Origin: Candidatus Omnitrophota bacterium
GTDB lineage: Bacteria; Omnitrophota; Gorgyraeia; Zapsychrales; Fredricksoniimonadaceae
Assembly (NCBI GenBank): GCA_013285735.1
Contig: JABDGZ010000002.1
Span: 5,952 to 69,951, forward strand
Direction: 5' to 3'
DNA: 64,000 nt
A model generated the notes under the pieces. That model was not told where the DNA came from, made no database searches, and saw nothing but the letters and a program-made list of their open reading frames with translations. The stretch's first letter is position 1. Each line of letters begins with the position of its first letter. Shown in pieces: positions 11,173-63,900 of the stretch. A program made the position numbers and the translations under genes.

Positions 11173-11508
11173 TTATTGAGCAACAATAACACCTGTGGAA
11201 CTTTTATGAAAATCCGCCCAATACTTATACGTTCCTGGCTGTAAGGGCCCCAGATAAACAATCATTTTTTTATTGCCTTCTACGACCTGTTCACGGTCTA
11301 AGTCAAAACTTTCAAATTCTTCTGGCGTTGGGTCTTGATTATCAACTGTTACCTGAAGCTTTTGGCCAGCAGCGACCGTTAATTGGGCTGGATCAAATTG
11401 ATGATTCTTAATCACAATGGTATTAGGCGCCTGAGTTTCAGCCAAAGACAAAACCGGCAACCAAACACAAACACCTAAAACTAAATAAACAATCAGACGA
11501 ACAACCAT
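11173..11508 (-). CDS. Cupredoxin-like periplasmic protein (FtrB/EfeO-N-like)
   Basis: Signal/TM MVVRLIVYLVLGVCVWLPVLSLAE, then a single beta-sandwich (IVIKNHQFDPAQLTVAAGQKLQVTVDNQD...GTYKYWADFH). Start moved from 11556 to the ATG at 11506-11508, which has AAGGAG 6 nt upstream. The longer ORF start lies inside a hairpin repeat. Confidence 0.65.
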   Translation of the reverse strand: MVVRLIVYLVLGVCVWLPVLSLAETQAPNTIVIKNHQFDPAQLTVAAGQKLQVTVDNQDPTPEEFESFDLDREQVVEGNKKMIVYLGPLQPGTYKYWADFHKSSTGVIVAQ

Positions 11509-11530
11509 GACATTCTCCTTAAGTAGCTTA

Positions 11531-11554
11531 TCATTCCCGCAAAAGCGGGAATCC
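11531..11554. repeat. Hairpin repeat family 1
   Basis: tcattcccgcaaaagcgggaatcc; 8-bp stem, 4-nt loop. Creates the spurious MDSRFCGND extension of ORF 11173-11556. Confidence 0.8.
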
Positions 11555-11592
11555 ATTAAAATTTTTTATACCCTAATACGTTATTATTTACC

Positions 11593-34116: not shown

Positions 34117-37089
34117 TCTTTGCCGCAACTCAATTAAAATGGGAAGATTTACAACGGACTCGATTTCAGTAATTTCAGGGATAAAACCCTGGATACGGCT
34201 TAGTTGGGCCATGTCTTGCTGAGATAAGGGCAACGGTACACCACGCCCGTTGCGTTTGATTTGTAAATTCAAATTTGCGGAATTAAAATCAATACCACCA
34301 TTCAAAGCTTGGTCTGAAGGTGGTTTGAGATTCGTTCGCATTGGTAATTTCGGTGGTTGGCCAGCATGCGGCTTGATATTTTGAGTTAAATAATATACGA
34401 TCCATGCCGCGACAACTACCAATACCAATGCTATCACTTTGGGCAGCCTATCCTCACGGTAGTCTACGCTCCCATCTTTATCTGTCATTATCGCTGTTGC
34501 TATCGTTGCAGCAGCTATTGCGTTTGGGGAACCTATATCTTTAAATCTTCTAAGCCACATCCTTGCCAAGTTAATTGCTTTAAGATTATCCTCACCCTTA
34601 CTTATCATTGTCACAGCTGCTTCTGTTGCAGCAGTCGCTTCTGTGTTGTCCAATTCACTAAATTCCAAAGACAGGTCTTTTACCGTTCTGATTGCTTTAC
34701 TTTCATTAATCTTTGTACCATCACTCGCCACTGTATCTATCAACATCGCTGCCATCATCACTTCAAAAGTAGTAAGCTGCTTCTATTCTGAAAACCAAAT
34801 TACCATTTCTTTTGCTTTACTCTCAACCATCCCTTTACTTATCATTATCGCCATGATGATAGCTCCAACTTGACCAGCTTTTACAATTAATCTTTTTGCC
34901 AATAAAATTGCATCCTTCTCCTCCATACCACCACTGATCAGTCTCCCTGCCGTTATTGTTGCAAAAGGCGTCTCTTCTCTCCTCCAATGATAAAACTCCG
35001 ATATTAATCGTTCTGCCATGATTCCAGCTTTAAGCTGTCCCCTTCTTTTATTCACTAATCTAGCAGCTGTTGTCGTCCCCAAAAATATTATGTCTGAATT
35101 ATCTTTTCCAATCTTTCTAAACGTGTCAACTAAGTATTCTGCCGTGGATATTGCTTTATTACTATTCATCGCAGCGTCATAACTAACTTGTGCTTTATCT
35201 GTCAGTATCGCTGCTGCCATTGTAGCGGCTGCTGTTGCATTGGGAGAACCTAAACGACTAAACCTTTTAAGCCAGCCCCTTGCCATCCCAATAGCTTCCC
35301 TTGGGTCTATCCCCTTAGCTATCATTCTCGCTGTTGCTTCTGTCCCGGCAATTGCTTCTAGCTTACCCAAATCACTAAATTCTGACGTCAGGTCTCTTGA
35401 CGTTCTAATGGCTATGGCCTCACTTATCTTGGCACCTATCATAATAGATGCTGTCATCAGTTCTTGAGTGGAAAGCTGCTTTTGTTCCCATAACCAAGCT
35501 GTCATTTCTTTTGCTTCATTTTCTTTCATCCCTTGACTTATCATTGTCGCCATTAATATGGCACCTATATCACCATATTCTGAAATTAAATTCTTTGTCA
35601 TTGGGATTGCGTTCTTTTCCTCTATCCCTCCTCTTATCAATCTCCCTGCTGTTATCGTTGCAACTGGCGTATCTTTTTTGCTCCATCTGAAAAATTCCCG
35701 AAACAGTCGTTCTGTCAAATCAACAGCTTCAACTTGCCCTCTTTTTTCATTGATCAATCCCGCCGCTGTGTTTGTTCCCAAAAATAATATTTCAAGGTCA
35801 TTATATTTTCTGAACATTGCGACCAAATTCTCTGCTGTAGAATTTGCCACAATACTATTCATCGCCGCGTCAGCTTCTTTGTCTGTTTCAAGCGAAACAG
35901 CTGCCCTATCTATATCTCCTACCAAAGCAGAACGGTCAATGCTATGGGATATAGTAAGAGACATATCCTTATTATTTACGATTTCTAATATTCCTCTACC
36001 ATAACCATGCATTCCATTGTCAATACCGCTATATTTAACTGCCCCACCGGAAAAATATTTTCTTGGAATTGCTTCCTTGGTATATTTGTCCACATCTTCT
36101 TTGATGTAGTTAAACACCCCTTTCTTAAAAGCCTTAAGATATTGTTGGTAGATTTGATGTTGAGATTGCTTCGCTTCGCTCGCAATGACACCAGGATCAT
36201 TACTTGTAAAACCAGTAACTCCCTGCACCTTGGCTTGGTTGGCATAAACCTTTCCTAATAATGATTCCTTAAGAGCGTGTTTATACCACGTGGCTAAAAT
36301 CATGCCGCTATAAATCTGGCGTAGGTTAGCAAAATTCTTACCTTCATTGACTTCGCGCTCGAGTTCGGGAAGGACGATTTCACGGATGACTTGGGAGCCT
36401 ATGGAATGGATGTTATTAGTAGTTCCAGAATGTTTTTGTAAAGAAAGATAGTCTTCTTCCAGCATCACTTTAAGATGATTGCGCAAGACATATACCGTAT
36501 TACCGCTTTCATAAACTGCAGCTTCGTCAGGGATGATCCAGACTTTATTAAATGTGTTGACGGGAATATTGGTGACGCCATATTCTTTAAATGCTCGCTC
36601 ATAGACTCTATTCCAGAATTTTTTGCCTAAATTATCTTCGGGATAAATCAAACTCGAGGTGATTTGCTTTAAGATGTAGTCCTGTGCGAGAAGGTCTCGA
36701 CCCATTTCAGTCTTGCCAAAATCATCCTTAATAATACGGTTCTTTTCATACGGAGAGAGATTGACCCACTGGTCATTATCAGGAACAGTCAAAGAGGCTA
36801 AAAAATATTTTACTAATTTAGTATATTGCTCTTGTTTCTGAATTTCATTTAACGGCTCATCCCCGCGATGAATGAGAAAATCAAATTGTAGGGCATTGTC
36901 AGGATGGATGACCATTCCTACCAAATGTGCAGGTGTATATGTTGAACTTAAATGCACCAATATTCCGGGAGCAGGTAAGTGAAATTCACCTTCAACGCTA
37001 TACATTGGTTCTGCCTTGGCAGTTGGATTAGGGCCAATGGTGTTGACAAAAAATGCCAATAGGATAATAAAAGACACACAGCTACGCAT
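34108..37089 (-). pseudogene. Head-cargo-tail paralog B, interrupted by one in-frame TAG at 34783-34785 (ORFs 34783-37089 and 34108-34761 are in the same frame)
   Basis: 37089 and 34761 are both multiples of 3, so the two ORFs share a frame. Reading through gives ...KEMVIWFSE*KQLTTFEVMMAAML..., which continues the internal ~230-aa repeat; compare repeat 1 ...KEMTAWLWEQKQLSTQELMTASIM... Signal peptide, head domain, 2 repeats, a TM (VIALVLVVVAAWIVYYL), and a GGIDFN tail. Confidence 0.8.
36162..36189. repeat. Hairpin repeat family 2, in frame in the paralog B head domain
   Basis: gagattgcttcgcttcgctcgcaatgac; encodes VIASEAKQSQ. It is absent at the aligned position of paralogs A and C. Confidence 0.85.
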
Positions 37090-42473: not shown

Positions 42474-43384
42474 CAGGACTTAACTCCTAAGGCAGCCTGG
42501 TAACCCTGTTCTGCAATATAGGAACTACGGACCAAAGGCCCGCTCTCTACATACACAAAACCCATTGCTAATCCTTTTTGACGGTACTTTTCAAATTCTT
42601 CAGGGTCAAGAAAACGTTCGACCGGCAGGTGACGTTTGCGTTGAGTCGGCGCTAAATATTGGCCAATGGTCAAAATCTGGCAGCCAGCCTCAAGAAGCTC
42701 ATTCATCACCTCAACAATTTCCTCGTCAGTCTCACCAATACCGACCATTAAAGATGATTTTATAAAGCTATGGGTATTAAGTTCACGAAAACGGCGCAGC
42801 ACCTTCAAAGAACGGTCATGCAAAGCCTGCGGACGAATATAGGGTGCAAGACGCCTGACTGTTTCTATATTATGGCTGATCACCTCGGGTGCCGCATCAC
42901 TCAATATTTTCAATGACGCTTCCTTGGCAGAAAAATCCGGGATCAACACTTCAATTTTAACGTCCGGGGTAAGGTGTCGGATAGCCTCGATCGTTTTGGC
43001 AAACTGGAGAGCTCCCTCATCTTCAATATCATCACGGGCGACTGAAGTTACCACCACATAACGTAAACCTAATTGTTGAACAGCCAACGCCACATTCTGA
43101 GGCTCTTCCATATCAATCAAATCCGGACGTCCGGCCGGAACAGAACAAAAGCGGCAGGCGCGTGTACAAGTGCCCCCTAAAATCATAAAGGTTGCCACAC
43201 CCTCTTTCCAGCAAGTACCCATATTCGGGCAATTGGCAGATTCGCAAACCGTATGCAGGCGGCTGCCACGAAAAAGTTCTTTCATGCTCCGGATCTTATT
43301 CATATCTGGAATTTCCTGCTTAAACCAGCTCGGCAGCTTTACCAGACCTGAATCAAATTTTTCTTTTGTAATCATCGTCGTCAC
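42473..43384 (-). CDS. lipA: Lipoyl synthase
   Basis: CESANCPNMGTCW auxiliary cluster and the CTRACRFCSV radical-SAM motif. Confidence 0.95.
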   Translation of the reverse strand: MTTMITKEKFDSGLVKLPSWFKQEIPDMNKIRSMKELFRGSRLHTVCESANCPNMGTCWKEGVATFMILGGTCTRACRFCSVPAGRPDLIDMEEPQNVALAVQQLGLRYVVVTSVARDDIEDEGALQFAKTIEAIRHLTPDVKIEVLIPDFSAKEASLKILSDAAPEVISHNIETVRRLAPYIRPQALHDRSLKVLRRFRELNTHSFIKSSLMVGIGETDEEIVEVMNELLEAGCQILTIGQYLAPTQRKRHLPVERFLDPEEFEKYRQKGLAMGFVYVESGPLVRSSYIAEQGYQAALGVKS

Positions 43385-43898
43385 CCAGCACGTTGCCGGC
43401 GTAGGTTCCTTTTTTCATCTGTGCTACAATCCGCGTACGATCGCGAGGAGATAAATAATCAAGGATTAATTTCCCTTGTAAATGATCATATTCATGTTGA
43501 AACACCTTGGCCACGAGTCCATTTAACTGGGCCCGCACCTGGTGATTTTCCTGATCGGTAAATTCCACCCAAATGGTCTTGGCGCGTTTGACATCGACCA
43601 ACACGCGAGGAATGCTCAAGCACCCTTCTTCCATAACCTCGCCGCCTGCGGTCCTGATAATCTTGGGATTAATAGCAGCGAAAATCTCTTTCCCGGTATC
43701 CACCACAAAAATCTGTTCATTGATACCTATTTGAGGTGCCGCTAAGCCAACCCCTCTGCAGGCGACCATGGTCTCGAACATCGCTGCGATCAGCATGCGC
43801 TCAACCGGACCGACTTCCTTGATTGCTTTGGATTTTGTTTCCAGGCATGGGTCACCATAAAGCCTGATTTTTAAGGGACCAAACATCATATAAACCAC
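43353..43898 (-). CDS. def: Peptide deformylase
   Basis: GVGLAAPQIG, EGCLS and QHEYDHL motifs. Confidence 0.95.
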   Translation of the reverse strand: MVYMMFGPLKIRLYGDPCLETKSKAIKEVGPVERMLIAAMFETMVACRGVGLAAPQIGINEQIFVVDTGKEIFAAINPKIIRTAGGEVMEEGCLSIPRVLVDVKRAKTIWVEFTDQENHQVRAQLNGLVAKVFQHEYDHLQGKLILDYLSPRDRTRIVAQMKKGTYAGNVLGDDDDYKRKI

Positions 43899-43900
43899 AC

Positions 43901-43925
43901 GTCATTCCCGCGAAAGCGGGAATCC
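43901..43925. repeat. Hairpin repeat family 1
   Basis: gtcattcccgcgaaagcgggaatcc; lies between panD and def. Confidence 0.85.
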
Positions 43926-43930: not shown

Positions 43931-44284
43931 TTAAATCTTTTTTATTTTGTTCTTTGGATCAAGATAAACGATTTTAGGTTGAAGACGACGGGCTTCTGCG
44001 ACTTCTAACAAGCCATAACTTAAAATAATCAAACGGTCTCCCACATATCCATGACGGGCTGCAGGGCCGTTTAGGCAGATAACACCAGAAGCAGGTTCGC
44101 CTGCGATCACATAGGTTTCTAAACGGTTACCGGTATTTTCATTAAGCACATGCACTTTTTCACCAGGAATCATACCAACTGCCTTGAGGATATCCGAATC
44201 AATGGTGATACTACCCTCATATTTCAATTCAGCCTGGGTGATGGTCGCATGTCCTATCTTTGATTTTAAAACTTCAATAAGCAT
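43931..44284 (-). CDS. panD: Aspartate 1-decarboxylase
   Basis: MLIEVLKSKIGHATITQAELKYEGSITID (Gly-Ser self-cleavage site). Start moved from 44347 to the ATG 44282-44284 because the longer ORF begins inside a hairpin repeat (MDSRFPLRG...). Confidence 0.9.
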   Translation of the reverse strand: MLIEVLKSKIGHATITQAELKYEGSITIDSDILKAVGMIPGEKVHVLNENTGNRLETYVIAGEPASGVICLNGPAARHGYVGDRLIILSYGLLEVAEARRLQPKIVYLDPKNKIKKI

Positions 44285-44296
44285 ATTTATACTATT

Positions 44297-44345
44297 GTCA
44301 TTCCCGCGACTTCGAAGAAGCCCTCGAAGAGGAAAGCGGGAATCC
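44297..44345. repeat. Hairpin repeat family 1, long variant with nested palindrome
   Basis: gtcattcccgcgacttcgaagaagccctcgaagaggaaagcgggaatcc; lies between trxA and panD. Confidence 0.8.
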
Positions 44346-44355
44346 ACAATTCCTT

Positions 44356-44795: not shown

Positions 44796-45965
44796 CTAGT
44801 GAGCGAATAACCGGCATATTTGTCCTGTAATTATACCATTATAGGCACCCAAGGTGTGGCCCAAAATGGCTAAAAGCAGTCCTACGGATGCAAAGCCTGG
44901 CTGATAAACTTCCGCGACTACCGGTGCAGAAACTAATCCTGCAAGATTAGACAAAGAAGCAGTGGCGACTAAAAATAATGGTGCGCGGATCAGGCGGGCA
45001 GTCACCAGCAATATCATTACATGAATTAAAATCACCACCACCCCTGCCGCGAGTAAAATCCCCACCTGAGAAGCATTACTTAAACTGGCACGGGCACCGA
45101 TGCTCGTTAGCACAAAATATAAAATCCATTTGCCAAATTTGTTAGCACCTGTGTGCGGGATACGGCTTATCGGTGTCATAGACAAAATAATGGCCGTGGT
45201 GGTGACCAAAATAACGGTCCAGGCGTAAGGTGTAAGAATATTTTTTCCTGTTGGTAAATAAATAGATACGGCTTTAGCCGCCAAGCCGATACTAAAAGCT
45301 AACACCAAAATAATAATAGCATTACCTATGTTAAGAGATTGCTTCGCCTCGCCCGCAATTGTAGAAACTCTACTGCTTAAATCATCCAGGATCCGCCGAT
45401 CAGCGCGGTTCCATTTGTCAAAATCTATTTGCCGTGCGGCTAAAGAAATTAAAATACCCACCCATACATACGGTAAAATCGTATCCACGATGACCATCGG
45501 CAAAAAAACAGCGTCAGGTGTATTCAAAGCTTCTTTGACTGCAACCATATTGGCACTTCCCCCGGTCCAGGATGCAGACAAAGCCCCAAACCCTCCCCAA
45601 AATTGCGGGCCAACCAAAGGTTTAAAAATAATAAAACTAATGACCATGCCAAGCATGATGCCGAATGACCCGGCAAAAAACATCACCAATGCCGCAGGCC
45701 CTAGGCGGGAAATGGCCTTAAAATCCACATTAAGCAAGAGCAAAAAAAGCGCCGGCGGTAAAAGGCATTTGGTTATCTCTTGAAATAAGGAACTTTTAGC
45801 ATCAATAAGCCCACAGGTGGATAAAACCATGGGCAAGAAATAAATCCAGAACATCGAGGGCAGGAATTTAAATAAAAATTTGGTACGCGGGTTTCCCGCT
45901 AAAAACAAAATAGTAAATTCGACAGCTAAGAGAACAAGGATTAGAAGTAAATGATGATGGATCAT
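44796..45965 (-). CDS. DUF819-like polytopic membrane protein (putative transporter)
   Basis: About 12 TM segments. Its position downstream of the dipeptide epimerase is a recurrent context as I recall it. Carries an in-frame hairpin repeat (TIAGEAKQSLNIG). Ends in TAG. Confidence 0.5.
   Translation of the reverse strand: MIHHHLLLILVLLAVEFTILFLAGNPRTKFLFKFLPSMFWIYFLPMVLSTCGLIDAKSSLFQEITKCLLPPALFLLLLNVDFKAISRLGPAALVMFFAGSFGIMLGMVISFIIFKPLVGPQFWGGFGALSASWTGGSANMVAVKEALNTPDAVFLPMVIVDTILPYVWVGILISLAARQIDFDKWNRADRRILDDLSSRVSTIAGEAKQSLNIGNAIIILVLAFSIGLAAKAVSIYLPTGKNILTPYAWTVILVTTTAIILSMTPISRIPHTGANKFGKWILYFVLTSIGARASLSNASQVGILLAAGVVVILIHVMILLVTARLIRAPLFLVATASLSNLAGLVSAPVVAEVYQPGFASVGLLLAILGHTLGAYNGIITGQICRLFAH
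45334..45362. repeat. Hairpin repeat family 2 (diverged), in frame in the DUF819-like gene
   Basis: agagattgcttcgcctcgcccgcaattgt; encodes TIAGEAKQSL. Confidence 0.6.
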
Positions 45966-48380: not shown

Positions 48381-48435
48381 AAATTTATTTTATCACAAAC
48401 CCCCCAACACCCAAACAATGTTTGCTTATTTGTGT

Positions 48436-51400
48436 TTAAGTAGACGAAGCCTGCAGCTTATGCTGCAGTTCACTTAAGATTGGCAGATTTACAGCAGGCC
48501 TGATTTCGATGATTTCAGGTATAAAGCCTTGGATATTGTTAAGCCGGGTCATGTCTTGTAAGGCCATAGGAAGCGGCACCCCACGACCATCGCGTCGGAT
48601 TATTAAATTCAAATTCGAAGAATTAAAATTAATACCACCTAAGTCTTCAGAAGATACTGCTGGAGCCATGCCAGAAAAAGTAAACGTGTCCATATGCGTC
48701 GGCCGCGACACCACATTAACTCCACTACCAAATGCAGGTAATGCAGCAGCTACTAGTAAAGAAAGTGATGATGCTAATTGCCTCACAGTCATCGAATTGT
48801 CCATTACATCAGCCAAGTTAGATAAGAGCTCTGGCGTAGACATTGGCTTTGGCAATAACCGCATTATTTTAGGCATATTCTTGAATGGAAGATGCTCACC
48901 AGGCTTGCTATATTCCCCATGATTACCACTCCAAAATACTCGCGGCATATTGGAAACTCTCGGATCAGTGCTAATACTAATTCTTCTAGCCAACTCTTCA
49001 CCATCCATAACAGGCATATTAATATCAGAAATCATCCCATCAAATTTTTTATCTGGATCTTCCAACAATTTCAACGCTTCTTCTCCATTATTAGCAATCG
49101 TGACATTAAGACCCAACACTTTTCCCCACATCCCCAACGACTTAGTAATAGGTTCTTCATCATCAATAATCAAAATATTCTTTCCAGTAAAGAATGTTTT
49201 TAAATCCTCCATTGATCTTGTCGTAATCATCGCCGTATCCAAGACTTTTTTAACCGCCTTACCTACTTCGCTACTAAGATTAAATCTCCCCTTAGCAAAG
49301 AAATGCCCATCTTCAATAGGAATTCCTGCCGCTCGTAAATCTGCTGCGCTACTATCTCCGCTTGTAGCAAAAACAGGGATTTTCTTACCGTGATCTTGCT
49401 CAACCTTATCTAAAGCCTCTTTAATAGTCGGTATCCAACCCCTTACATCAGTCACCAAGGCGTCTACTTCCTCTCCATGTTCTTCCATAATCTTTGCGAG
49501 CTGTTTTGGATTATGCGCTTCTAAAACCACATACCCCATTCTTCTTAGTGCATCTGTAATATCCATTTGAATAAATATTTCATCTTCTGCAACCACAACA
49601 ACCTTTTCTCCTGTGGTCGTCATCGCCACATCAGCGAAAAGATCCCTTGCTACAAAGGCAGATCTCCTTCTAGGATTTTCTTCAAAATAACGTCTTCCTG
49701 CAAATGTACCTGCCCACTGATTTAATGCTCTTTCATACAAAACTTCCACATGCACATTTAATTCAGTTCCTGGTTTATACACATCTTCATATGTCACTGG
49801 AACTCTGATTTCTGCGTAATTACTGATAGGCCAAACAAGAACTACCTTTTCATCTGGATGCCGTTGCAAAATCTTTTCTACAACTATACAAGAATTAGAA
49901 AGAGAAGCTCCAGCTTTTATCGGATTTACTTCTATGGGAAAATCCTCAGCCCGCCATTGCTTCCATTTTAAAGATGCCGCTCCTTCCAAAACTGCATTGA
50001 GAGCAATGGTGTCATTAATAGTACTAGCTGCTATTTCAATTTCACCTCTATCACGGCTTGTAATAATATTGTCTAAATCTGCCAAAGGCATAGCCGATAC
50101 AATTTGCGACACTTCACCGATTCCATTTTTTCTTCCATTTAATATATCAGCCAGACGCTGGACAGTTATCCGCCTGGGATCTATGGGACCTTCCCTGCCA
50201 GAGATCTGGGTGTAATATGTCCGTCTTAATCGTCCAACCACAACCCCTTCTCTTGCTTCTCTTAACTCATTTATCATTCGGAGAATTAATTCTTTATGTT
50301 GTGGGATGACACTGCTTCTTGGTCTTTTCTCAAATGATTCTGCTATCTTTGTTAATTCGTAAGGAGACGCATAGTCAATAATTGAAGCTACTCCACTCAT
50401 AAATCTGCCAGTCTGATCCTCAGTAGTAGTTGCAGATCTCTGCGACAAATAAATTAAACTCTCAACAGCTATTTCTGTGCTCTGTACATCCAAGGCTCGA
50501 TTCATAATAACTCTAAAAATTTCAATCAACTTTGGAAAAATAGTTCTATCCTGAAAAAGTAGACTATGTAATTCGTCCGATTGCCTTAGAATATGGTCTA
50601 CCATTTGCATCACTACTTCTGCTCTTCTGCTAGTGACCATGGGCAAACCCCTGACTTCATCTCTTACGTTTACAGCTTCTCCCCGTGAATTTAAATAAAT
50701 CCCGATTGGAAATCTAGTTTCCCCACCATTAAGTAATTTATTAACTCCAACTGTTCTTAAATACCCGCAAATTAAATCTACTATTATTGGTAAATCTTCT
50801 ACCGAATAAGAACCGCCTAATTCTCCTAATAATTTCTTGAAAAAAGCGCTAATGGCTACTTGATAATCTCCCACGAAGCTCAGTTCTCTAATAGCTTTGG
50901 GTTGAGCCCAATACCAATATTCTTGATTTCTAACTGCATCATCTGTCTCTTTCAGCAACGCACTTTTAACCATTTTTTCTGACCTTAACACCACCCTCGA
51001 CCTTTCAAAATCGCTTCCTGGCACCGGTATTGGGCTAACCAAAGCAAATCCCAAAATTCTTCGATTAAATCCCCTCACATCATCGACATATTGATATAGA
51101 AAAAATGGACGCAAACTCTTAACATCGAGTGTCTCTAACAATGCTTTTGCTTTTTCAAATTCAATTTTAGCCTGTTCAAAATTCTCTGAATCTAGCGCCT
51201 TTGTTCCATTTTTCATATATCTTTGAATGACTGGGCCATTTTCCTCATACGTCGTCTCAAAACGCCCCCTATCACCGCTGGGACGGACACTCCCTTTCTC
51301 ATATTCCTTCTTAAATTTTAAATACGTTTCTACTGTCCCAGACTTTGAACCATACACTTTTTCCAATATTGATCTGGTTTCAACTCCTAAAACCTTGGTA

Positions 51401-54400
51401 CGTCGTTCAAGCAAATTCATTTTTGCAAACACCATACACAGTTTTCCACTAGGAAGTTCTATCAAAACATGATTTGCAATTAATGCTTCTATAATTTTGT
51501 TACCAATAAGTTTAGCCAATGGTGGCAGCTGATCGATAAAACTTGTTCTATCAAAGTCAGCCAAAGATTCCATGGCTTCTATGGCTTCTTTTACCGCATT
51601 TAAATCATTCCTTTGGTAATAAACAACCGCATATTTAAGCCTAAAATACTCATCAAATAAATTCCCGAGATCCACTGTTAAGCCCATTTGTTGATGCAAC
51701 GCTACCAGATTAGAATAGGCAAGGCTTAATTCTGCATTTGCATCATCCCGTTCTCCTGCTCTAATCAATTCTTCACACGCTTTCAACTGGTCTTCAACCC
51801 GTACTTTTGGATCTATTACCGTTGTCATCGACTGATCTCCCAAGCCTAAAAAACGAAGCAGTGGTTTATCGCTGGGAGGATGTCCCAAAAATTCCTCTTG
51901 ATTCTCAGCCTCGTGATTGCTTCCACCTGGCTCTAAAATTAAAGTTCGAAATTCTCTTCCCACTTGAGGATCAAAATCCACCGTCCTATCATCGCCTTCG
52001 CCCACGATCCTCATTGCTTTTATAAAACGTTCGCCGTCATCCTCTGCAACCCCGAGCGATTCGGCATATGTAGAAAAACGTGCATCATAATTTGATCCCA
52101 TAATATGCCGCCATGCAGCTTGATAATGCGTCCCTGCTGTCGGATAGATTCCTGCCTCATTCATCGTGTTAAAATAAACTTCAGTTGAGCTGCCAGGCAC
52201 GCCCGTATGATATCTTAAATCAACAAGAGATAATGCCACCCTCTCAAGCCAGGTATACGCTTGCCCCACCTTGCTTGAAGCTATCATCTTATTAAGTAGA
52301 TCATCCGAAACTTTCTTTCCTTGAATTCTTCCATTTTTTCCTATAATTCTTCTGAGGATTTCGGGATGATATACCATGTTTTCAAACATCTGCGAAGGGA
52401 CTTCATCAGCACCACGCTTTACCCCATGAATTCCGGAAAGTGATGGGTATTTAGCTCTTGTAAGTGCCGCATGCATCAGGTGGCCAAATTCATGCATAAA
52501 TATCGCTACTTCTTTATATGTAAAATTATTTCCTGAGAAATTAGCCACCATCCCTTCCACTGTAGGCTCATACGTCCCATCCGGATGCTCATAAGCTCGA
52601 CGCATGTTGAAGACAGCAAAACCACCTTGCTTACCATCATGCGCCTTTATATCTAAATAAAATTGTCCGATAAAATTCCCTGTTGTTGTATCACTCACTG
52701 AAAAAAGCCTGGCATCTTTATGCCAAGCATTGGTTGAGCCTCTAGGCACTTCTGTAAACGTAACATCCAGGATTTCTTGATAAATATCTAATATATTATT
52801 AATTGTTCTATCAATAGGAAATAGTTCACTCAATTTACTTGGATCAAAACCTAAAATTCTTTCTCTTAATAAATTTTGATAATATGCTCTCTCCCAATTT
52901 TCAATTTTCGTGGCTGATCGATCTGTCTCTTTCTTTATATCAAGAAGCTGAGCTTCTTCTTCCGCTACAAGCGGCATTAAGCCAGTCTTTAACTGATTTA
53001 AAAAACTTTCCACCTCTTGACGATCGTTAGACATATACCTTTTGATGATATAATCAGCATATGTATCATAACCAAGTATCTTAGCAAGCTCCTCACGTCT
53101 CCCCAGGACCTCTTCAAGCAGGGAAACATTATTTAAAGACTGTTGTAAAATAGGAAGAATTCTAGAAAATTTATCCCCAAAGATGGCTGACATACGTTCA
53201 GAATCTTGCCTCAATTTTAATGTTAAAACAATTTCCGTAGGACTTTTGCGCCTTGCCCAACCGTTATCGATCAATATTTGGGAATCTTCATCCCAGCTAA
53301 GTCCATTAGTTTTATCTTTCTCAAATTGATCTTTTGTTACTACCTCTTCACCGGCAGCCCGATTATTATAGGCAAATTCAACTTGTTTCCGAAGAGCAGC
53401 ATTAGTAGACAACTGCATAAATCTGTCATATTGGATGGGAGAAGAGAACTTATTGATAACATATCCTTCTGTCTGTGGATCATAAAAACTTTTTAGTTCA
53501 TCACCTTTAAAAATACCTTCAAGATCACTCTCAGACACCTGAATATTCATTTTATACCCACCAAGATTTGCCTGAAACTGGCTAATTAATCCCCCTATTT
53601 CTCCTCTAATTTCAAGGACTCTTGCCTGCTGCTCGTCAGTCAATTTTAATCCAGACAAACCTATCCCAAGATCTCTAAAATCATCGAGTGTCCAGTCCAA
53701 AAGATACTGGTCTGTTTCATCTAATTTTTCTCCCTTAGCCTGATATTCTGCAATCGCATCATAAATTTCACTTCTTGTACGGGATTTTCTTAAAACTGGC
53801 AAAATCCTTGATTCAAAATCATCGCCGATGGCTGCTGTCATCTTCGCTACTAGATTTTTATCATTCAAATTTACAGTTATGCGTATCTTGGTGGGGCTTA
53901 TGCGCCAGGCCCATCCATTTTCAACTAATTTTTTAGAAACCTCATCCCAATCAGCTCCGATGTCCTCCCTTGTAACAGTTCCTAAATATATATACCCCAT
54001 CAGCAATTGGTTTGTTGCCAGACGAATTGCCTCAGCCGTATTATGCAATTCTGTATCAGGGGTAACAAAAGGAATGATTTGCCAATCCAAAGCATTAAAT
54101 AATTCTGCCCTGGCAATATCAAATGCAGCGACAGTATTCTGAAAGGTCCTTTGTTCGACCGGCCTATTAATAATTTCCTCTACCTCTGCCTCAAGCCTGT
54201 CTCTAGCCGCATTAATTTTCGCTTTAAACTCTTCAGCTGTTAATTCTTCAAAATTATTCTCTGGTAGCGGCTCATCTAAGACTGTGTTAATCTCTACACC
54301 ATCATTACTGATCGTTATTTTATGTGTAGAAGTTCTAATGACTACTTGATTATTTTTATTCACCTTTTCCGTATATATTTTCTTCACACCCTTAATGTAG

Positions 54401-57400
54401 ACAACGGCACCTCGAGCATCCACCCCAACAGCTTTAAGACTTTTTTCTTCTGATTCATATTGCCGGGCTAACGGTGCAATTAATGATGACAAACCAAAAA
54501 ACTTTACAACACCCTGCTGCTGATCAACAATACTAAAAGTTCCAGCCCTATACTCCGTCAACTTGTACGCATACTCACCCTCTTGAGTGATTTCTCTATC
54601 TACTTTAGCGATACCATCATAAAGAACCACCGCTACACCCCGTGGCCTAGCTAACACTTTTAATCTTTTAAATTCTTCAATCGCTTTGGCACCTGGATGC
54701 CAATGATAAGAAGGACTTCCATATAATCTTTCATCACTAACGGGGGCAAGTGGATAAGAAACAGCAGCTTCATGTCCTGTTACAATCTTTGTTAAAAATT
54801 GATCTTTTATTATCCATCTCTCACCACTTTTAGGGTTAATTAAAACTGTCCCTTCTGGCAAAAGCCGCATCTCTTCCCTAGCCTTTTTATTTTCTATCGT
54901 CATTGCATTGTCAGGCATAACAAGGGCTACTTGTATAAGAAACTCTGCAATTTCTTGAGCGTCTTTCGGATAATTCTGTTCATCTGGCCGTATCTCAATC
55001 CCAGGTAATGCGTCTTGAAGTATGCCTCTAAACTTTTCATCGGCGTACGCGGTTTGCCATAGTTGTGATCTCAATTCAGGGTACTCAAGACTCCTTGCAA
55101 TTGCCAAAACAGTTCCACGATCAAAACCAGGCACAGCATTTATGCGCGTGGCAGCATCCTCAATTTTAGATACCTTATCAGAAAGTCCGGTTTCGCTAGA
55201 AATTGTTACTTGCGTTTGACCAGGCGCACTTATCTTCCTGGCAACTACCACCAAAACATTTGATTCAACTTTAACCTTACCAGATGGAATACTCGGGTCA
55301 TGATAAAAAACCCGATTACCTGTATTAAAAATCATCACATTTGCGTTACTTGGGATATTCCGTACCTGCATACGGTTAACTTCGAGTGTTGCTCCTTTTA
55401 TTTCAGATTCTATTAATTGAAAACCTGCTTTCTGTAAAGAGGCATCAAGCGCTGTTTTAAACATATCTACGGCGTCCACCTTAACAGACCTTACCTTTAA
55501 AATCCTCAATATGTCCGCAAAAAGTCCTTCATACTGTTCTTGCAGCTGAGCAGGTGAATTTTGAATCTCAACAAAATATTTTAACGGATCTTTAAGGTAA
55601 TCACTCAGTAATTTTACATCTGCGTCATGCATTTTATGTCGGCTTGTCGCAAAACTCATTGCTAACGCTCTACGGTTAACCTTCAAATAACTCCGCATGA
55701 CCTTTTGATTTGTTCCAGGCATAAACGAGACAGCAGGGAAAAAAACTGCATCTTGAGATGCCATTACTACATCAGCCGATGGTGCCAAATCAATAAACCC
55801 AACCATTAAGCCATCTTCCCTTAAAACACGATGCATTTCTGCTGTCGCATGATCCAAATCAAAAAATGTATCCAGGACAGCATAGCTGACAATACCAGGT
55901 ATTGAATTATTAGGAAACTGCATCGCATTGACGTTAACAACAATCTTGGGCGTGTCATATTGATTACGTTTCAAATTATCTTCAATGACATCTGATTGAA
56001 TAATACGCCCTCTCATTCCTTGAGCAAGACGAGAAAGCTCCCCTTCCCCACTTCCTATCTCTAAAATCGGCGAAGTAGTATGACCAAAATATTGCGCTAA
56101 TGTATTTCCAACAACCATACTCGTGGCAGGTCTAAAATCTTGTCTGAATTCATTGTACATTCTAAACACTTCAGGGGTGTTCCATAGCGGTGGACGTTGA
56201 TCACCATTCATCGCTTCGTCACCGCTGTTCAGATTTTCTTTTTCACCTGTTCCATGAATATCGGTTTTGACAACTTCATCTTTTCCCTCTGCAAACTCGT
56301 CAGGTATTTGATCCACAACTTCTGCTGGCAATGTTACAAAATCATGGACAACTGCAACGTTAGGAACCAGGTATGGAATTCCATTAGGTCCCATCCTTAC
56401 AAGGCTTCTCCTAAACCCACCTGAAAAATACTTCCTCGGAATAGCTTCATTGGTGTACTTATCCACATCTTCCTTGATGTAATTAAAGACACCTTTTTTG
56501 AACGCCTTCAAATAACGTTCATAGATTGCTTCATTGGTTTTGGGGTCCTGGTCAACACCTTTGACCTTGGCTTTGTCGGCATACACCTTCCCTAATAGTG
56601 ACTCCTTCAAGGCTTTCTTATACCAGGTCGCAAGCACCATGCCGCTGTACATTTGGCGCAAGCTTGCAAAATTCTTACCTTCATTGACTTCTTTTTCTAA
56701 TTCGGGAAGGATGATTTCACGGATGACTTGGGAAGCGATCGCATGGGTGTTGTTCTTGTTATGGATTCCCGCTTTCGCGGGAATGACATTATTGATCGCG
56801 GAATGTTTTTGTAAGGACAGATAGTCTTCTTCTAACATCACCTTTAAATGGCTTTGGAGAATGTAGGCGGTGTTGCCGCTTTCGTAGACAATGGCTTGAT
56901 CCGGCACAATCCACACTTTATTAAACGTATTCACTGGAATACTGGTGGTGTGGTATTCTTTCCAGGCACGTTCATAGATCCTAGCCCAAAACTTCTTACC
57001 CAAACCATCTTCGGGATAAATCAGGCTTGAAGTGATTTGTTTGAGCATATAATCTTGGGCCAAAAGGTCCCGGCCCATTTCAGTTTTTCCGAAATCGTCC
57101 TTAATAATACGATTATGTTCATACGGGGATAGATTGACCCATTGGTCTTCATCAGGAATGGTCAAAGAGGCCAGAAAATATTTGACCAATTTCGTATATT
57201 CTAGCTTTTTTTGATCACTATCTAATTCTTGATCGCCTTTATGGATTAAAAAATCAAACTGCAAAGCATTATCCGGATGAATGGTTATGCCCTGTAAATA
57301 GGCCGGTGTAAATTCAGGACTTAAATGCACCATCACTCCAGGCATTGGCAAACGCGGCATCTGATCCTGTGACAACTGGGCATAGGCCGGGCTTTTAACC

Positions 57401-57495
57401 GAAGTAACGATAAAAGCAACTAAAATAACTATAGAAGTAATTTTATATATTCTTCTTAACATAATCTTAACAATTTTTAGGGTACATGGGACCAT
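48436..57495 (-). CDS. Giant (3019 aa) head-cargo-tail paralog A: signal peptide, conserved head, SAM-MTase, unknown regions, M3 zinc peptidase, 2 receiver domains, conserved tail
   Basis: Uninterrupted 9,060-nt ORF; domain motifs are listed in the sub-features below. The start is either 57495 (GGGAG 2 nt upstream, which is too close) or M12 at 57462. Both give a signal-peptide-like N-terminus ...IVTSVKSPAYA/QL. Confidence 0.9.
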   Translation of the reverse strand: MVPCTLKIVKIMLRRIYKITSIVILVAFIVTSVKSPAYAQLSQDQMPRLPMPGVMVHLSPEFTPAYLQGITIHPDNALQFDFLIHKGDQELDSDQKKLEYTKLVKYFLASLTIPDEDQWVNLSPYEHNRIIKDDFGKTEMGRDLLAQDYMLKQITSSLIYPEDGLGKKFWARIYERAWKEYHTTSIPVNTFNKVWIVPDQAIVYESGNTAYILQSHLKVMLEEDYLSLQKHSAINNVIPAKAGIHNKNNTHAIASQVIREIILPELEKEVNEGKNFASLRQMYSGMVLATWYKKALKESLLGKVYADKAKVKGVDQDPKTNEAIYERYLKAFKKGVFNYIKEDVDKYTNEAIPRKYFSGGFRRSLVRMGPNGIPYLVPNVAVVHDFVTLPAEVVDQIPDEFAEGKDEVVKTDIHGTGEKENLNSGDEAMNGDQRPPLWNTPEVFRMYNEFRQDFRPATSMVVGNTLAQYFGHTTSPILEIGSGEGELSRLAQGMRGRIIQSDVIEDNLKRNQYDTPKIVVNVNAMQFPNNSIPGIVSYAVLDTFFDLDHATAEMHRVLREDGLMVGFIDLAPSADVVMASQDAVFFPAVSFMPGTNQKVMRSYLKVNRRALAMSFATSRHKMHDADVKLLSDYLKDPLKYFVEIQNSPAQLQEQYEGLFADILRILKVRSVKVDAVDMFKTALDASLQKAGFQLIESEIKGATLEVNRMQVRNIPSNANVMIFNTGNRVFYHDPSIPSGKVKVESNVLVVVARKISAPGQTQVTISSETGLSDKVSKIEDAATRINAVPGFDRGTVLAIARSLEYPELRSQLWQTAYADEKFRGILQDALPGIEIRPDEQNYPKDAQEIAEFLIQVALVMPDNAMTIENKKAREEMRLLPEGTVLINPKSGERWIIKDQFLTKIVTGHEAAVSYPLAPVSDERLYGSPSYHWHPGAKAIEEFKRLKVLARPRGVAVVLYDGIAKVDREITQEGEYAYKLTEYRAGTFSIVDQQQGVVKFFGLSSLIAPLARQYESEEKSLKAVGVDARGAVVYIKGVKKIYTEKVNKNNQVVIRTSTHKITISNDGVEINTVLDEPLPENNFEELTAEEFKAKINAARDRLEAEVEEIINRPVEQRTFQNTVAAFDIARAELFNALDWQIIPFVTPDTELHNTAEAIRLATNQLLMGYIYLGTVTREDIGADWDEVSKKLVENGWAWRISPTKIRITVNLNDKNLVAKMTAAIGDDFESRILPVLRKSRTRSEIYDAIAEYQAKGEKLDETDQYLLDWTLDDFRDLGIGLSGLKLTDEQQARVLEIRGEIGGLISQFQANLGGYKMNIQVSESDLEGIFKGDELKSFYDPQTEGYVINKFSSPIQYDRFMQLSTNAALRKQVEFAYNNRAAGEEVVTKDQFEKDKTNGLSWDEDSQILIDNGWARRKSPTEIVLTLKLRQDSERMSAIFGDKFSRILPILQQSLNNVSLLEEVLGRREELAKILGYDTYADYIIKRYMSNDRQEVESFLNQLKTGLMPLVAEEEAQLLDIKKETDRSATKIENWERAYYQNLLRERILGFDPSKLSELFPIDRTINNILDIYQEILDVTFTEVPRGSTNAWHKDARLFSVSDTTTGNFIGQFYLDIKAHDGKQGGFAVFNMRRAYEHPDGTYEPTVEGMVANFSGNNFTYKEVAIFMHEFGHLMHAALTRAKYPSLSGIHGVKRGADEVPSQMFENMVYHPEILRRIIGKNGRIQGKKVSDDLLNKMIASSKVGQAYTWLERVALSLVDLRYHTGVPGSSTEVYFNTMNEAGIYPTAGTHYQAAWRHIMGSNYDARFSTYAESLGVAEDDGERFIKAMRIVGEGDDRTVDFDPQVGREFRTLILEPGGSNHEAENQEEFLGHPPSDKPLLRFLGLGDQSMTTVIDPKVRVEDQLKACEELIRAGERDDANAELSLAYSNLVALHQQMGLTVDLGNLFDEYFRLKYAVVYYQRNDLNAVKEAIEAMESLADFDRTSFIDQLPPLAKLIGNKIIEALIANHVLIELPSGKLCMVFAKMNLLERRTKVLGVETRSILEKVYGSKSGTVETYLKFKKEYEKGSVRPSGDRGRFETTYEENGPVIQRYMKNGTKALDSENFEQAKIEFEKAKALLETLDVKSLRPFFLYQYVDDVRGFNRRILGFALVSPIPVPGSDFERSRVVLRSEKMVKSALLKETDDAVRNQEYWYWAQPKAIRELSFVGDYQVAISAFFKKLLGELGGSYSVEDLPIIVDLICGYLRTVGVNKLLNGGETRFPIGIYLNSRGEAVNVRDEVRGLPMVTSRRAEVVMQMVDHILRQSDELHSLLFQDRTIFPKLIEIFRVIMNRALDVQSTEIAVESLIYLSQRSATTTEDQTGRFMSGVASIIDYASPYELTKIAESFEKRPRSSVIPQHKELILRMINELREAREGVVVGRLRRTYYTQISGREGPIDPRRITVQRLADILNGRKNGIGEVSQIVSAMPLADLDNIITSRDRGEIEIAASTINDTIALNAVLEGAASLKWKQWRAEDFPIEVNPIKAGASLSNSCIVVEKILQRHPDEKVVLVWPISNYAEIRVPVTYEDVYKPGTELNVHVEVLYERALNQWAGTFAGRRYFEENPRRRSAFVARDLFADVAMTTTGEKVVVVAEDEIFIQMDITDALRRMGYVVLEAHNPKQLAKIMEEHGEEVDALVTDVRGWIPTIKEALDKVEQDHGKKIPVFATSGDSSAADLRAAGIPIEDGHFFAKGRFNLSSEVGKAVKKVLDTAMITTRSMEDLKTFFTGKNILIIDDEEPITKSLGMWGKVLGLNVTIANNGEEALKLLEDPDKKFDGMISDINMPVMDGEELARRISISTDPRVSNMPRVFWSGNHGEYSKPGEHLPFKNMPKIMRLLPKPMSTPELLSNLADVMDNSMTVRQLASSLSLLVAAALPAFGSGVNVVSRPTHMDTFTFSGMAPAVSSEDLGGINFNSSNLNLIIRRDGRGVPLPMALQDMTRLNNIQGFIPEIIEIRPAVNLPILSELQHKLQASST
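48439..48639 (-). other. Conserved tail domain (paralog A), unknown family
   Basis: GGINFNSSNLNLIIRRDGRGVPLPMALQDMTRLNNIQGFIPEIIEIRPAVNLPILSELQHKLQ. Equivalent tails lie at 34111-34300 (B) and 60962-61177 (C). Confidence 0.8.
48817..49182 (-). other. Receiver (REC) domain 2 within paralog A, canonical
   Basis: NILIIDDEE ... GMISDINMPVMDG ... VFWSG ... LLPKP. Confidence 0.8.
49261..49605 (-). other. Receiver (REC) domain 1 within paralog A, divergent
   Basis: KVVVVAEDE ... ALVTDVRG ... VFATSGD ... FFAKG. Confidence 0.6.
51850..54264 (-). other. M3-family (thimet oligopeptidase / Dcp / oligopeptidase A-like) zinc metallopeptidase domain within paralog A
   Basis: HEFGH at 52480-52494 (aa 1668-1672), followed ~25 aa later by DEVPSQMFENMV, the E-x-PSQ third-ligand motif of M3. 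N-terminal helical region RTFQNTVAAFD. Contains two inserted ~55-aa repeats. Confidence 0.8.
55786..56133 (-). other. Class I SAM-dependent methyltransferase domain within paralog A
   Basis: Motif I ILEIGSGEGE (I477 at 56065-56067), acidic post-I IIQSD, NAMQFPNNSIPGIVS, and HRVLREDGLMV. Confidence 0.7.
56416..57360 (-). other. Conserved head domain (paralog A), unknown family
   Basis: aa ~45-360, ending IPRKYFSGG. Collinear with 36043-36990 (paralog B) and 63113-64000 (paralog C). Confidence 0.8.
56763..56787. repeat. Hairpin repeat family 1, in frame inside the giant gene (encodes VIPAKAGIH)
   Basis: ggattcccgctttcgcgggaatgac. Paralogs B and C lack these ~12 codons at the aligned position. 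Confidence 0.85.
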
Positions 57496-59328: not shown

Positions 59329-59349
59329 AGAATTTTTAATTATATCAAA

Positions 59350-59378
59350 GATTCCCGCTTAAAGCATGCGGGAATGAC
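59350..59378. repeat. Hairpin repeat family 1
   Basis: gattcccgcttaaagcatgcgggaatgac; in the divergent MFS intergenic region. Confidence 0.75.
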
Positions 59379-59390
59379 ATTATTTAATTT

Positions 59391-60958: not shown

Positions 60959-63900
60959 CTAATTCAACACTTGATGGTACGGAATATCTGATTCAAGACT
61001 CAAGAAGACTGGCAGATTGGTAAGCGGAACAATGGATCGAATTTTAAATTCCAGGCCATCAAAACCCTCAGTCTTGATACGCGCAATCATGGCCGAGTCA
61101 AAGTTCATTGAGATACCCTTGTCACCTTTTTGAATATTCATTTTCATATTACGGGAATTGAAATCAATACCACCAGGATCTAGCATCGCCCCATCTTTTC
61201 CTGCTTTCTTTCTTTGAGCTGCCATTCTACTAAGTTTTTCATCATCATACGAGCTACTATAGTCACGGTCCTTTACCCTGGTGGTGGGCACTGTGTTAAA
61301 TTCTCGATCGAAAAAGATAGCGACTGTTCCATTTCTAAGATTAATTCTAGGTATTATCCTAATTACATTAACATGTCTTTCAAGAGAATCAGATAGAGGC
61401 ACTTTAACATGATATATCGCCGCCATAAATATAAAACGCCAAAGAATGTATTCACCATTATTAAGACCAATAATACCGACGGGAAAATTCATATTACAAG
61501 GGGCCTCTAATAATATAGGGTACATTTGTTTTTTCTCGACATCTGACATTGTAGGTAAAACCATATTAGAACCGTCTTTTCCTTTAAGACCATAAAACTT
61601 GTCTTGAATTACGCCATATTCAACTTTAATACCATTTTCGACTACCACCATTGGAACTATGTAACCATTGCTTATCAATTCCTGCCATTGGGCATCTGAA
61701 AATTTTTGTTTTATAACAGTCCGAACAAACAATCCAATGGTCGCATTTAGAATATCTCCCCCCTCAGAAGTAAAAATGAGCCTAGCTTCCTTAAAATATA
61801 CTCCATCTAAATGGGCCCAACGTAACAGTCTTTTTAATTGAGTACGTGTTGGTGAATCATCCAACATTAGCGGCCTGTTATAAATCTTCATTTTTTGACC
61901 TATTTCAGGACCATCTTCCTGCACCCCCAACTTCAAAACCAATCCTTTTTTAAATTTCCTTGGCGGTGCAAGCGTATCCATGGCTTGATCCTTAAACTGA
62001 ACAGCCCCTCCAAAAGGCTTGGCAGTAAAACTGTCTAAATTTTCTGGATCTTCTTGACTTAATTCTAGTACATAGCATTTTTGTTTATCTTTTTTTAATG
62101 ACATTTTGAAAAATACACCGATCCTTATTTGAATCTCTTCTAAATTCTTTAATTGAGCCTTTTGCAAAATATCATAAATTTGACTCTTCATCTTTAAATT
62201 CCAAGCTTTGGGAAGGGCCTTTATAAAATCTACTCTATTCATGTTATAGAATTGTTTGGAAATTCTACCTCTGATGTCGATAAATCCACCCTGTAACAAT
62301 ACCCCCCTTATCAAATGATCTACATCTGCTGACGGAGTTGGAGTGGTAGGCTGAGACGATTGAGAGATGGTTGAAAATGCTAGTTTTGCGACAACTCCAG
62401 AATTTTCGTTAAGAGAATCTGAAGCGGTATTTTCAAACAACTCTGCAATATTTTTGCTAACATCAATTTCTTTACCTAAAAGACTCTCATGAAAATATCC
62501 CATTGTCTTATCTAAAACGATTTTACCATTACCTTTAATAGCTTTGACTATAGCCTCTTCAGTAAGCGCAATGGCATGCTTGTTTTGATCTTGAGCTATC
62601 CTGTCAATAATTTGCCCTTGCTCTTTATTGGTCAAGTCTGTATCAACAATATAGGAAATACGGACCTTGGGGATTCCATTTCCTAAAATACGGATAATTT
62701 TCCTAATTAAAACTTTAGATTCCGAAACAGATTTTGGCCAGGATTCCGGCAATTTATCGAGTAAACGTGCTGTGCTTTCTTGACCTACAAATTCTTCTTT
62801 AGCTTCACGTGCCATAGCCTCCAATATGCTTTCACGATCTTTTTCTAAATAATACCATTTCAAAAATTTAGAAAATAAACTGCCCCGAAGGCCCTCTAAA
62901 CGCAAATCAAACACATCTTCCTTCTCAATGGTCTTCAACCCTTTAAACATTCCTAAAACTTTTGCCTTTGCTTTCGTCCCACCTATCAATGCTGAATCTA
63001 CACGGGCAGGAAAAGCATCAACAGTCGCAATAAATTCATGCCCCGGTGAATCTAACATTGAAGCATCAACATTCTCAACAACACTTGGCGTTATCCCCTC
63101 CCAAATATCTTCCCCACCTGAGAAATATTTTCTCGGAATAGATTGCTGACTGATTTTATCAATATCTTCTTTAATATAATTAAACACACCTTTCTTATAC
63201 GCCCGTAAGTAACGATTGAATATTTCTTCGTTGGTTTTTAGATCAGCCTGATTTATCCCAACCTTGACCTTACTTTGATTACCATAAATCTGTGTAAGGA
63301 TGGCATTTTTAAGAGCTGTTTTATACCAGCTGGCCAGGATCATCGAATAGAACATCTGACGTAAAGGGGCAAAATTTCTGCCTTGATTGACTTCCTTTTC
63401 GATTTGGGGAAGAATGATCGAACGGACTATATTAGACCCTACTGAGTCTATATTGTTGCGAATAACCGTGTGTTTCTGTCGCGCCAAGTAATCCTCTTCC
63501 AGCATCACCTTTAAATGCGCGCCAACCACATAGGCGACGTTGCCACGCTCATAAACATCCGCCCTGTCAGCCACTATCCACACCTTATTAAAGGTGTTAA
63601 CAGGCACTTGTGTTGTCCCGTATAATTCTTGAGCTTTAGAATAAACCTCATCCCAAAAAGTCTTACCCAAATTTTTCTCAGGATAAATCAAAGAAGCTGT
63701 TAATTGCTTCAAGATATAATCCTGCGCCAACATATCGCGGCCCATTTCTGTCTGGGCTAAGTTTGAAGCAATCATCCTGTTTTTCTCATAGGGAGACAGA
63801 TTGACCCATAAATCCTTTTCAGGAATGGTCATTGCGGCCAGGAAGTATTTGATGAGTTTTGAAGATTCTTGTTTGAGCTGTTTTTGTTGTTTGGAAAGGG

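Follow-up and report, generated by a model that had tools for sequence, protein, structure and literature searches.

An in-frame hairpin repeat of the NTS/SRM type in the head domain of a giant Omnitrophota protein

A hairpin repeat within a giant gene

A 64,000-nucleotide (nt) stretch of a Candidatus Omnitrophota bacterium genome (assembly GCA_013285735.1, contig JABDGZ010000002.1, positions 5,952–69,951; hereafter the window) carries a 25-mer, GGATTCCCGCTTTCGCGGGAATGAC, at 56763–56787 of its + strand, whose reverse complement, GTCATTCCCGCGAAAGCGGGAATCC, lies on the coding (−) strand of a giant open reading frame (ORF) of 3019 amino acids (48436..57495). The palindrome is read in frame there as VIPAKAGI(H), within the translated stretch LQKHSAINNVIPAKAGIHNKNNTHAIASQVIREI. 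Taken together, the results below make it likely that this element is an oriented, multi-copy hairpin of the published NTS/SRM family, lying in frame in a tolerated and recurrently colonised coil of the protein's head domain, and that the genic copy is a live one spread by conversion.

The hairpin core, GTCATTCCCGC-GAAA-GCGGGAATCC (56763..56787, −), is predicted to form, as single-stranded DNA (ssDNA), an 8-bp stem closed by a GAAA loop (−9.7 kcal/mol, z = −5.5 against shuffled sequences), and the element is stop-free in five of the six reading frames. Two exact copies of the 25-mer are present in the window (43901–43925 and 56763–56787) together with one copy with two mismatches (11530–11554), and the chance expectation for the 25-mer is 0.00. 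A search with the pattern ATTCCC-N4-40-GGGAAT returned six copies (11131, 11533, 43904, 44300, 56765 and 59351), an enrichment over the 0.4 expected in 64 kb of Markov-1 random sequence. An earlier note on this DNA had counted seven copies, five of them intergenic or at gene starts; we found no seventh, and five of the six are indeed intergenic or just upstream of true gene starts, the remaining one being the copy inside the giant gene.

Close relatives of the head lack the segment

The head domain of the giant ORF (head A) has two paralogs in the window, paralog B of 768 amino acids (34783..37089, −), with an empty site at the position of the hairpin (loop 1), and paralog C of 957 amino acids (60959..63832, −), with empty sites at this and at a second loop described below. 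At the site of the insertion, B reads LQKHSGTTNNIHSIGSQVIREI and C reads RQKHTVIRNNIDSVGSNIVRSI, and in a MAFFT alignment both have a gap of 12 codons that coincides exactly with the palindrome, which bears out the earlier claim of about 12 extra codons in paralog A matching the palindrome. Compared with B and with P0001, the nearest relative of head A (contig L248), the segment specific to head A spans 45 nt (56749..56793, −), codes for NNVIPAKAGIHNKNN and consists of the hairpin, 6 nt upstream of it and the 14-nt tail ATAACAAGAACAAC, found next to the hairpin in all heads that bear it.

The nearest relatives of head A without the segment comprise B, C, P0001, P0002, P0003, P0005 and P0006. 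Upstream and downstream of the site, A and P0001 share 92% and 90% amino acid identity and 81% and 79% nucleotide identity, and the equivalent comparison of the insertion-bearing head on contig L157 with P0013, which lacks the insertion, gives 94% and 90% amino acid identity. In all homologs with the segment, the palindrome is present at the DNA level. The insertion occupies at least ten separate positions on a neighbour-joining tree built from the conserved head core, and the nearest relatives of insertion bearers, at amino acid identities of at least 90%, are often without it. Because near relatives lack the segment and all bearers carry the palindrome, the segment is neither an ancestral loop nor a coincidence, and both possibilities are excluded; the in-frame insertion proposed in the earlier note thus withstands the comparison with homologs.

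Relationship to the NTS/SRM repeats

Judged by its sequence, the window repeat is a member of the known NTS/SRM family. Chenal et al. 2025 define a 28-nt NTS, CGTCATTCCCGCGMAVGCGGGAATCYRG, that is bound only as ssDNA by SsnA, a small GIY-YIG protein, which cleaves strand-specifically a few nucleotides upstream of it; the NTS loop can be changed or lengthened, the GTC preceding the palindrome and the C following it are reportedly critical to cleavage and binding, and related hairpins, termed SRM (Ssn-related motif), flank thousands of Ssn homologs, which are single-domain GIY-YIG proteins (cd10448) (PMC11893778). Motifs of this kind are bound and cut as ssDNA by Ssn nucleases in Neisseria and in other bacteria. 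The giant-gene copy is identical to the NTS consensus at 26 of 28 positions (26/28 and 27/28 for the window copies compared) and has the critical GTC and C at its flanks. The published SRM regular expression, HGTCWYN(0-2)YYVSBRHN(0-5)WNVSBRGN(0-2)RNCYNB, matches the window three times (0.17 expected), at 56761–56788 (−), the extended match around the giant-gene core, at 43900–43927 (+) and at 59347–59379 (−). The likeness to NTS/SRM therefore covers consensus identity (26–27/28), the regular expression, the oriented flanks (GTC 5′, C 3′), a length-tolerant loop, many copies and spread across phyla; the differences are that no ssn gene was seen in the window and that the host is Omnitrophota. 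The internal sequence ATTCCCGCGAAAGCGGGAAT at 56765–56784 also fits the dRS3 pattern ATTCCC-N8-GGGAAT; this is a pattern match only, dRS3 being a Neisseria term.

A family scan of one genome per species with the pattern GTCATTCCCGC-N4-GCGGGAATCC detected the exact motif in at least 120 stretches of genomes from many phyla. The matches listed include Bacteroidota, Alpha-, Beta-, Gamma- and Deltaproteobacteria, Chloroflexota, Planctomycetes, Nitrospirales, Parcubacteria, Saccharibacteria and a Nanoarchaeota metagenome-assembled genome, with Neisseria lactamica, Povalibacter, Devosia, Sphingomonas, Massilia and Azospirillum among the isolates, and among them the element often occurs in inverted (+/−) pairs 35–110 nt apart. 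At two loci from other phyla (L043 and L093) a 110-amino-acid GIY-YIG ORF adjoins the element. Searches for Ssn with phmmer and an approximate Escherichia coli YhbQ query, with a hidden Markov model built from the two sequences of L043 and L093, and with a motif regular expression, run over the window, L245 and all fetched loci, were positive at these two loci only. Among the matches listed (L008–L127), 29 of 164 exact copies fall within frames that stay free of stops for at least 60 codons in either direction, a rough upper bound given that high-GC genomes yield long spurious ORFs, and several (e.g. L110, L127, L104 and L058) have more than 150 stop-free codons on both sides; in-frame genic copies may accordingly be present in other phyla too.

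Recurrent insertion at two loops of the head domain

The giant ORF combines the head with Methyltransf_11, Peptidase_M3 and two Response_reg domains. Its hydrophobic N-terminal segment is signal-peptide-like as judged by eye, and the giant proteins are probably exported. The three paralogous heads lie within 30 kb and are fused to unrelated tails, that of A comprising the methyltransferase, the M3 peptidase and the two receiver domains, whereas B has no clear Pfam domain and C has a just-sub-threshold SMODS-associated NUDIX match. A search with the head (residues 41–380) gave 1314 homologs at E ≤ 1e-10, with most named sources being Candidatus Omnitrophica/Omnitrophota; the head is an Omnitrophota-specific domain. 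An AlphaFold2 model of residues 41–390 (56326..57375, −), built from 108 sequences, reached a predicted local distance difference test score (pLDDT) of 80.9 and a predicted template modelling score of 0.71, and a Foldseek comparison of this model with the PDB gave no match with E ≤ 0.001.

In the model the insertion occupies residues ~198–206, within a coil (194–209) between helices 182–193 and 210–232. Values of pLDDT fall below 50 at residues 196–199 and 203–205 and reach 86–97 in the 10-residue blocks next to the coil. Some 80 codons further downstream, helices 234–273 and 278–293 are joined by a second coil with pLDDT of about 60. The earlier suggestion that the element occupies a tolerant loop of the protein is upheld by this placement in a low-confidence coil between helices, where homologs carry other hairpin families.

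Loop 1 and the second coil (loop 2) are recurrent landing sites for several hairpin families. Reading an alignment of A, B, C and 120 homologs (123 heads), we counted hairpin-type peptides at site 1 in ~18 and at site 2 in ~12 of the 123 heads, across which the length of the site-1 coil is highly variable. The VIPAKAGI type is found at site 1 in P0004, P0015 and P0022, with long-loop forms in P0023 and P0069, and other site-1 types are VxASEAKQS, VILSAAKDL, VIARSQATKQS and GQPGDM...KAPQG. Wherever the DNA was read, the hairpin peptides of both sites correspond to palindromes with the same GTCAT...ATC ends. Within the window, loop 2 of paralog B contains in frame a second-family hairpin, GTCATTGCGAGCGAAGCGAAGCAATCT (GVIASEAKQS; 36163..36189, −), that is absent from A and C, and in P0023 the DNA of site 2 reads GTCATCCCCGA...TCGGGGATCC.

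Further observations concern the same two loops. Loop 2 holds a decayed version in P0010 and hairpin peptides in P0118, P0015 and others. P0001 has an unrelated 129-nt insert at loop 1, which contains a hairpin with a 12-bp stem (GGGGACATGTTC...GAACGTGTCCCC). Peptides related to GQPGDM...KAPQG recur in P0031, P0037, P0071 and P0107.

Stem conservation and concerted evolution

DNA was read for 16 further heads with the insertion, and every one of them has an intact 8-bp stem. Five of these heads came from the protein search and 11 from a metagenome scan with a pattern, GCNGGNATHCANAAYAARAAYAA, that leaves the left arm free and proved too degenerate, heads making up 11 of the 117 loci it returned. 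Loops of the head hairpins vary (GAAA, GAAG, GCAA, GGAA, GAAC, or 22–34 nt with a nested hairpin). Two stem pairs, T3:A3′ and C6:G6′, both fall at third-codon positions in this frame. For the 13 heads with a short loop, A among them, synonymous differences per codon pair encoding the same amino acid amount to 0.11 in the stem, compared with 0.55 upstream and 0.41 downstream, and all stem differences are the paired change CCC>CCG / GCG>GCC. On contig Ga0207051_1006 the paired variant is present in five of five copies read; two of these come from loop 1 of different heads, one from loop 2 of a head and two from outside the heads. The stem evolves in concert with the repeat family of its genome, since this variant is common to genic and non-genic copies of the contig. 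At the DNA level the hairpin is preserved and changes together with non-genic copies; the genic copy is not a fossil but behaves as a live member of the genome's repeat family.

Conservation of the stem within coding sequence, with one compensatory change, and the same orientation and frame in all heads are also what would be seen if the host gene selected the structure for a function in cis, such as mRNA pausing or processing or a regulatory DNA structure. This explanation is highly unlikely, because the compensatory variant is common to non-genic copies of the same genome, indicating concerted evolution, and because the closest heads have no hairpin or have unrelated ones. In addition, the giant-gene hairpin is accompanied by no T-run or other terminator feature, and an Rfam scan of the window at the gathering threshold matched no family.

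Origin and spread of the genic copy

The two heads on contig Ga0207051_1006, from another genome (L144 and L157), are 94–97% identical around the hairpin and 70% identical overall, with the high-identity patch extending mainly in the 3′ direction. This conversion-like patch has the pattern expected of short-patch gene conversion, and it supports the earlier description of the element as recombinogenic. All head copies furthermore share a 3′ tail, AYAACAAGAACAAC (NKNN), that non-head copies lack. Most likely, head A acquired a module of at least 39 nt, comprising the hairpin and the NKNN tail, from another head, as opposed to a fresh insertion of the generic 25-mer. The earlier picture of a mobile or recombinogenic element colonising this genome is therefore retained in a refined form, the element being a member of a published family and not anonymous (PMC11893778), and transfer of a module being likelier than fresh insertion.

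The competing explanation is fresh transposition, in which a generic element of 25–28 nt would have been inserted directly into head A by a cut-and-copy process, REP-like or like a miniature inverted-repeat transposable element (MITE), with no donor head. In its favour, the core of the giant-gene copy is identical to that of the intergenic copy at 43901–43925, copies are dispersed over unrelated intergenic sites, and the arrangement NTS-ssnA-NTS has been compared with that of an insertion sequence (PMC11893778). We nevertheless regard fresh transposition as improbable: the hairpin-bearing heads share the 3′ tail that is absent from non-head copies, the nearest relative of A lacks both hairpin and tail, and no target-site duplication was seen in the aligned flanks of 31 copies. 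To our knowledge, transposition by Ssn has never been shown, which counts further against it.

Under the preferred explanation, module transfer by conversion, an element in frame on the coding strand and in a flexible coil between two helices would be tolerated, and the hairpin would be copied together with its 3′ flank between paralogous heads by short-patch gene conversion. An Ssn-type nuclease would recognise the extruded ssDNA hairpin and nick just 5′ of it; repair templated by another copy or paralog would then spread and homogenise the hairpin and its 3′ flank, after which selection would leave only in-frame, stop-free copies in permissive loops. The suggestion that an Ssn-type nuclease and templated repair drive this spread and homogenisation is a tentative one, for an enzyme not seen in the window. 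A stronger version, in which the hairpins are programmed initiation sites for nuclease-triggered conversion among paralogous heads, forming a system for their diversification or homogenisation much as NTS repeats are arranged around the genes of surface proteins in Neisseria, is doubtful.

Partial copies of the left arm with ~13 additional nt were observed, in tandem or singly, immediately 5′ of the full hairpin in several heads (L157:3207–3392, L221, L137:698–844, L144:520–678, L169 and L239) and at one non-head copy (L157:2169). Examples at the protein level are VIPASSA repeated three times and NVNSVSS in multiple repeats, and (GTCATTCCAGCATCTTCCACT)x3 occurs in L157. These duplications lie on the side where SsnA is reported to cut, and they would fit repeated events 5′ of the hairpin. 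The hairpin was also considered as a breakpoint between large exchanged halves of the head, and this was rejected, as the nearest neighbours of insertion-bearing heads are concordant on both sides, with concordance within rank 2 of 60–73% for these heads compared with ~35% for other heads.

A number of observations weigh against the account of a live hairpin spread by conversion. The neighbour-joining head tree carries no support values. The metagenome pattern fixed five of the eight right-arm stem bases, with the consequence that decayed copies are perhaps under-sampled, and some decayed copies do exist (GIITSQAKQS in P0010 and NVIPSSS in P0013). The conversion patch lies in another genome, while here B and C have empty sites; the missing target-site duplications also belong on this side of the balance. 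Searches of the 64-kb window and 6 kb beyond, a small part of the genome, turned up no Ssn/GIY-YIG gene, no Y1 transposase and no other gene of a mobile element, and the other Omnitrophota contigs examined likewise yielded no Ssn/GIY-YIG gene. Pfam annotation of the neighbourhood returned housekeeping genes only. Look-ups found no record elsewhere of the full giant protein or of paralog C. Finally, Logan contig SRR8422745_2879 (L247), from an independent short-read assembly, equals window positions 43901–56783 with 0 mismatches, but begins at the first base of the 43901 copy and ends inside the giant-gene hairpin. Because the short-read assembly breaks there and the protein is unrecorded elsewhere, the sequence connecting the two sides of the hairpin in this genome depends on the assembly of the window itself.

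These contig ends, inside this hairpin and inside the 43901 copy, are what an assembly chimera joined at the repeat might leave, and a mis-join of paralogs is conceivable. Both flanks are, however, head sequence, in frame and with the same nearest relative, P0001, and the same in-frame hairpin is internal to independent contigs from other samples (L001, of 48 kb, L002, L004, L005 and L243); moreover, a mis-join of paralogs would still leave an in-frame hairpin in a head gene. Such a chimera, or an ancestral loop resembling the repeat by chance, against which the expectation for the 25-mer already speaks, can be given hardly any probability.

Comparison with known repeat systems

Both the repeat family and the in-frame insertion of palindromic elements are already known; what is new is their combination in the heads of Omnitrophota giant proteins, the recurrence at two fixed loops and the evidence that genic copies are still live members of the repeat family. 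NTS are rarely genic (2% in Neisseria meningitidis 8013; PMC11893778), in contrast to the present element, which is part of the reading frame of a conserved domain and returns at the same loops, and no part in transformation can be ascribed to it. The core fits the dRS3 pattern exactly, and dRS3 has been linked to a local rise in gene diversity and recombination (PMC11893778). In Neisseria, however, dRS3 flanks intergenic mosaic elements (NIME) and serves as a phage integration site, neither of which was seen here.

Rickettsia palindromic elements (RPEs) lie in frame in unrelated protein genes at positions predicted to be compatible with fold and function (PMC10969869), and the window element is likewise in frame at a structurally permissive site of a conserved protein. 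RPEs, however, are ~150 bp long, encode a peptide module of their own and have been described in Rickettsia genomes, whereas the window element is 25–28 nt (9–15 codons), differs in sequence and is pan-bacterial. It falls outside the RPE definition by size and sequence and is found repeatedly at two particular loops within a single domain family. With REP/REPIN sequences the NTS/SRM family has in common a short hairpin repeat, often in inverted doublets, tied to a single-copy domesticated enzyme acting on ssDNA hairpins, the enzyme family being GIY-YIG for NTS/SRM and HUH/Y1 for REP/RAYT. A REP/REPIN-RAYT assignment is opposed by the lack of RAYT/Y1_Tnp in the Pfam annotation of the window, of a GTAG head and of doublets among the window copies. 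Nor does the element qualify as a MITE by its defining features, there being no parent insertion sequence present and no target-site duplication in the 31 copies.

These results connect translated repeats of the VIPAKAGI type, also the source of spurious ORF starts like MDSRFRGND, with a family that was not characterised until 2025; a full-text literature search returned no mention of translated repeat peptides such as VIPAKAGI. They extend the NTS/SRM family to Omnitrophota and to coding sequence and provide, after the Rickettsia RPEs, a second system in which palindromic repeats remodel proteins in frame. The many independent events at two loops of one abundant domain allow permissive-site selection, concerted evolution and hairpin-stimulated conversion to be measured in metagenomes. 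In practical terms, such hairpins fragment short-read assemblies within genes and create false N-terminal extensions in gene calls.

Other copies and further features of the window

The exact intergenic copy (43901..43925, +) is located between ORF 43353..43898 and an ORF for a panD-type aspartate decarboxylase (43931..44347). A long-loop copy, with a 28-nt loop containing a nested hairpin (44297..44345, +), lies just upstream of the likely true start of this decarboxylase. At the 5′ end of a cupredoxin-like gene there is a copy with an AAAA loop (11530..11554, +), and the pattern search also detected a degenerate intergenic copy, ATTCCCGCTTATCAAGGGAATGAC (11131..11155, −), and a copy whose loop is 9 nt long, located between divergent genes (59349..59377, −), the latter within the SRM match at 59347–59379. 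The window copies are not arranged as doublets.

The longest-ORF starts MDSRFCGND... (11173..11556, −) and MDSRFPLRGLLRSRGND... (43931..44347, −) are translated hairpin, and the Pfam matches begin late, Cupredoxin_1 at residue 25 and Asp_decarbox at residue 22. As these matches start 20–25 residues in, the N-termini of both ORFs are translated repeat. The same two ORFs, which are bracketed by copies of the element, were considered as candidate nucleases and rejected, since they encode a cupredoxin-like protein and an aspartate decarboxylase.

Hairpins of the second family, or similar to it, were observed at two further positions. One, GTCATTGCGAGGAGGGCGAAGCCCGACGAAGCAATCT (24104–24140, −), is in frame as VIARRAKPDEAIS at residues 192–204 of a membrane/TPR ORF (23106..24713); VIARRAKPDEAIS lies between hydrophobic segments of this protein and represents a candidate insertion only. 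The other, a degenerate family-2-like TIAGEAKQS (45336–45362, −), occupies residues 202–210 of a DUF819 ORF (44796..45965) and may be a chance resemblance or a replaced segment as opposed to a net insertion, given that the DUF819 Pfam match is uninterrupted and of normal length.

Long-loop variants comparable to that at 44297..44345 are also present at L006:1427, L006:3647, L162:4718, L243:14058 and L007:3231. The outer 8-bp stem is kept and the loop measures 22–34 nt, exactly 28 nt in four cases; each long loop has its own nested hairpin, and all loop sequences differ.

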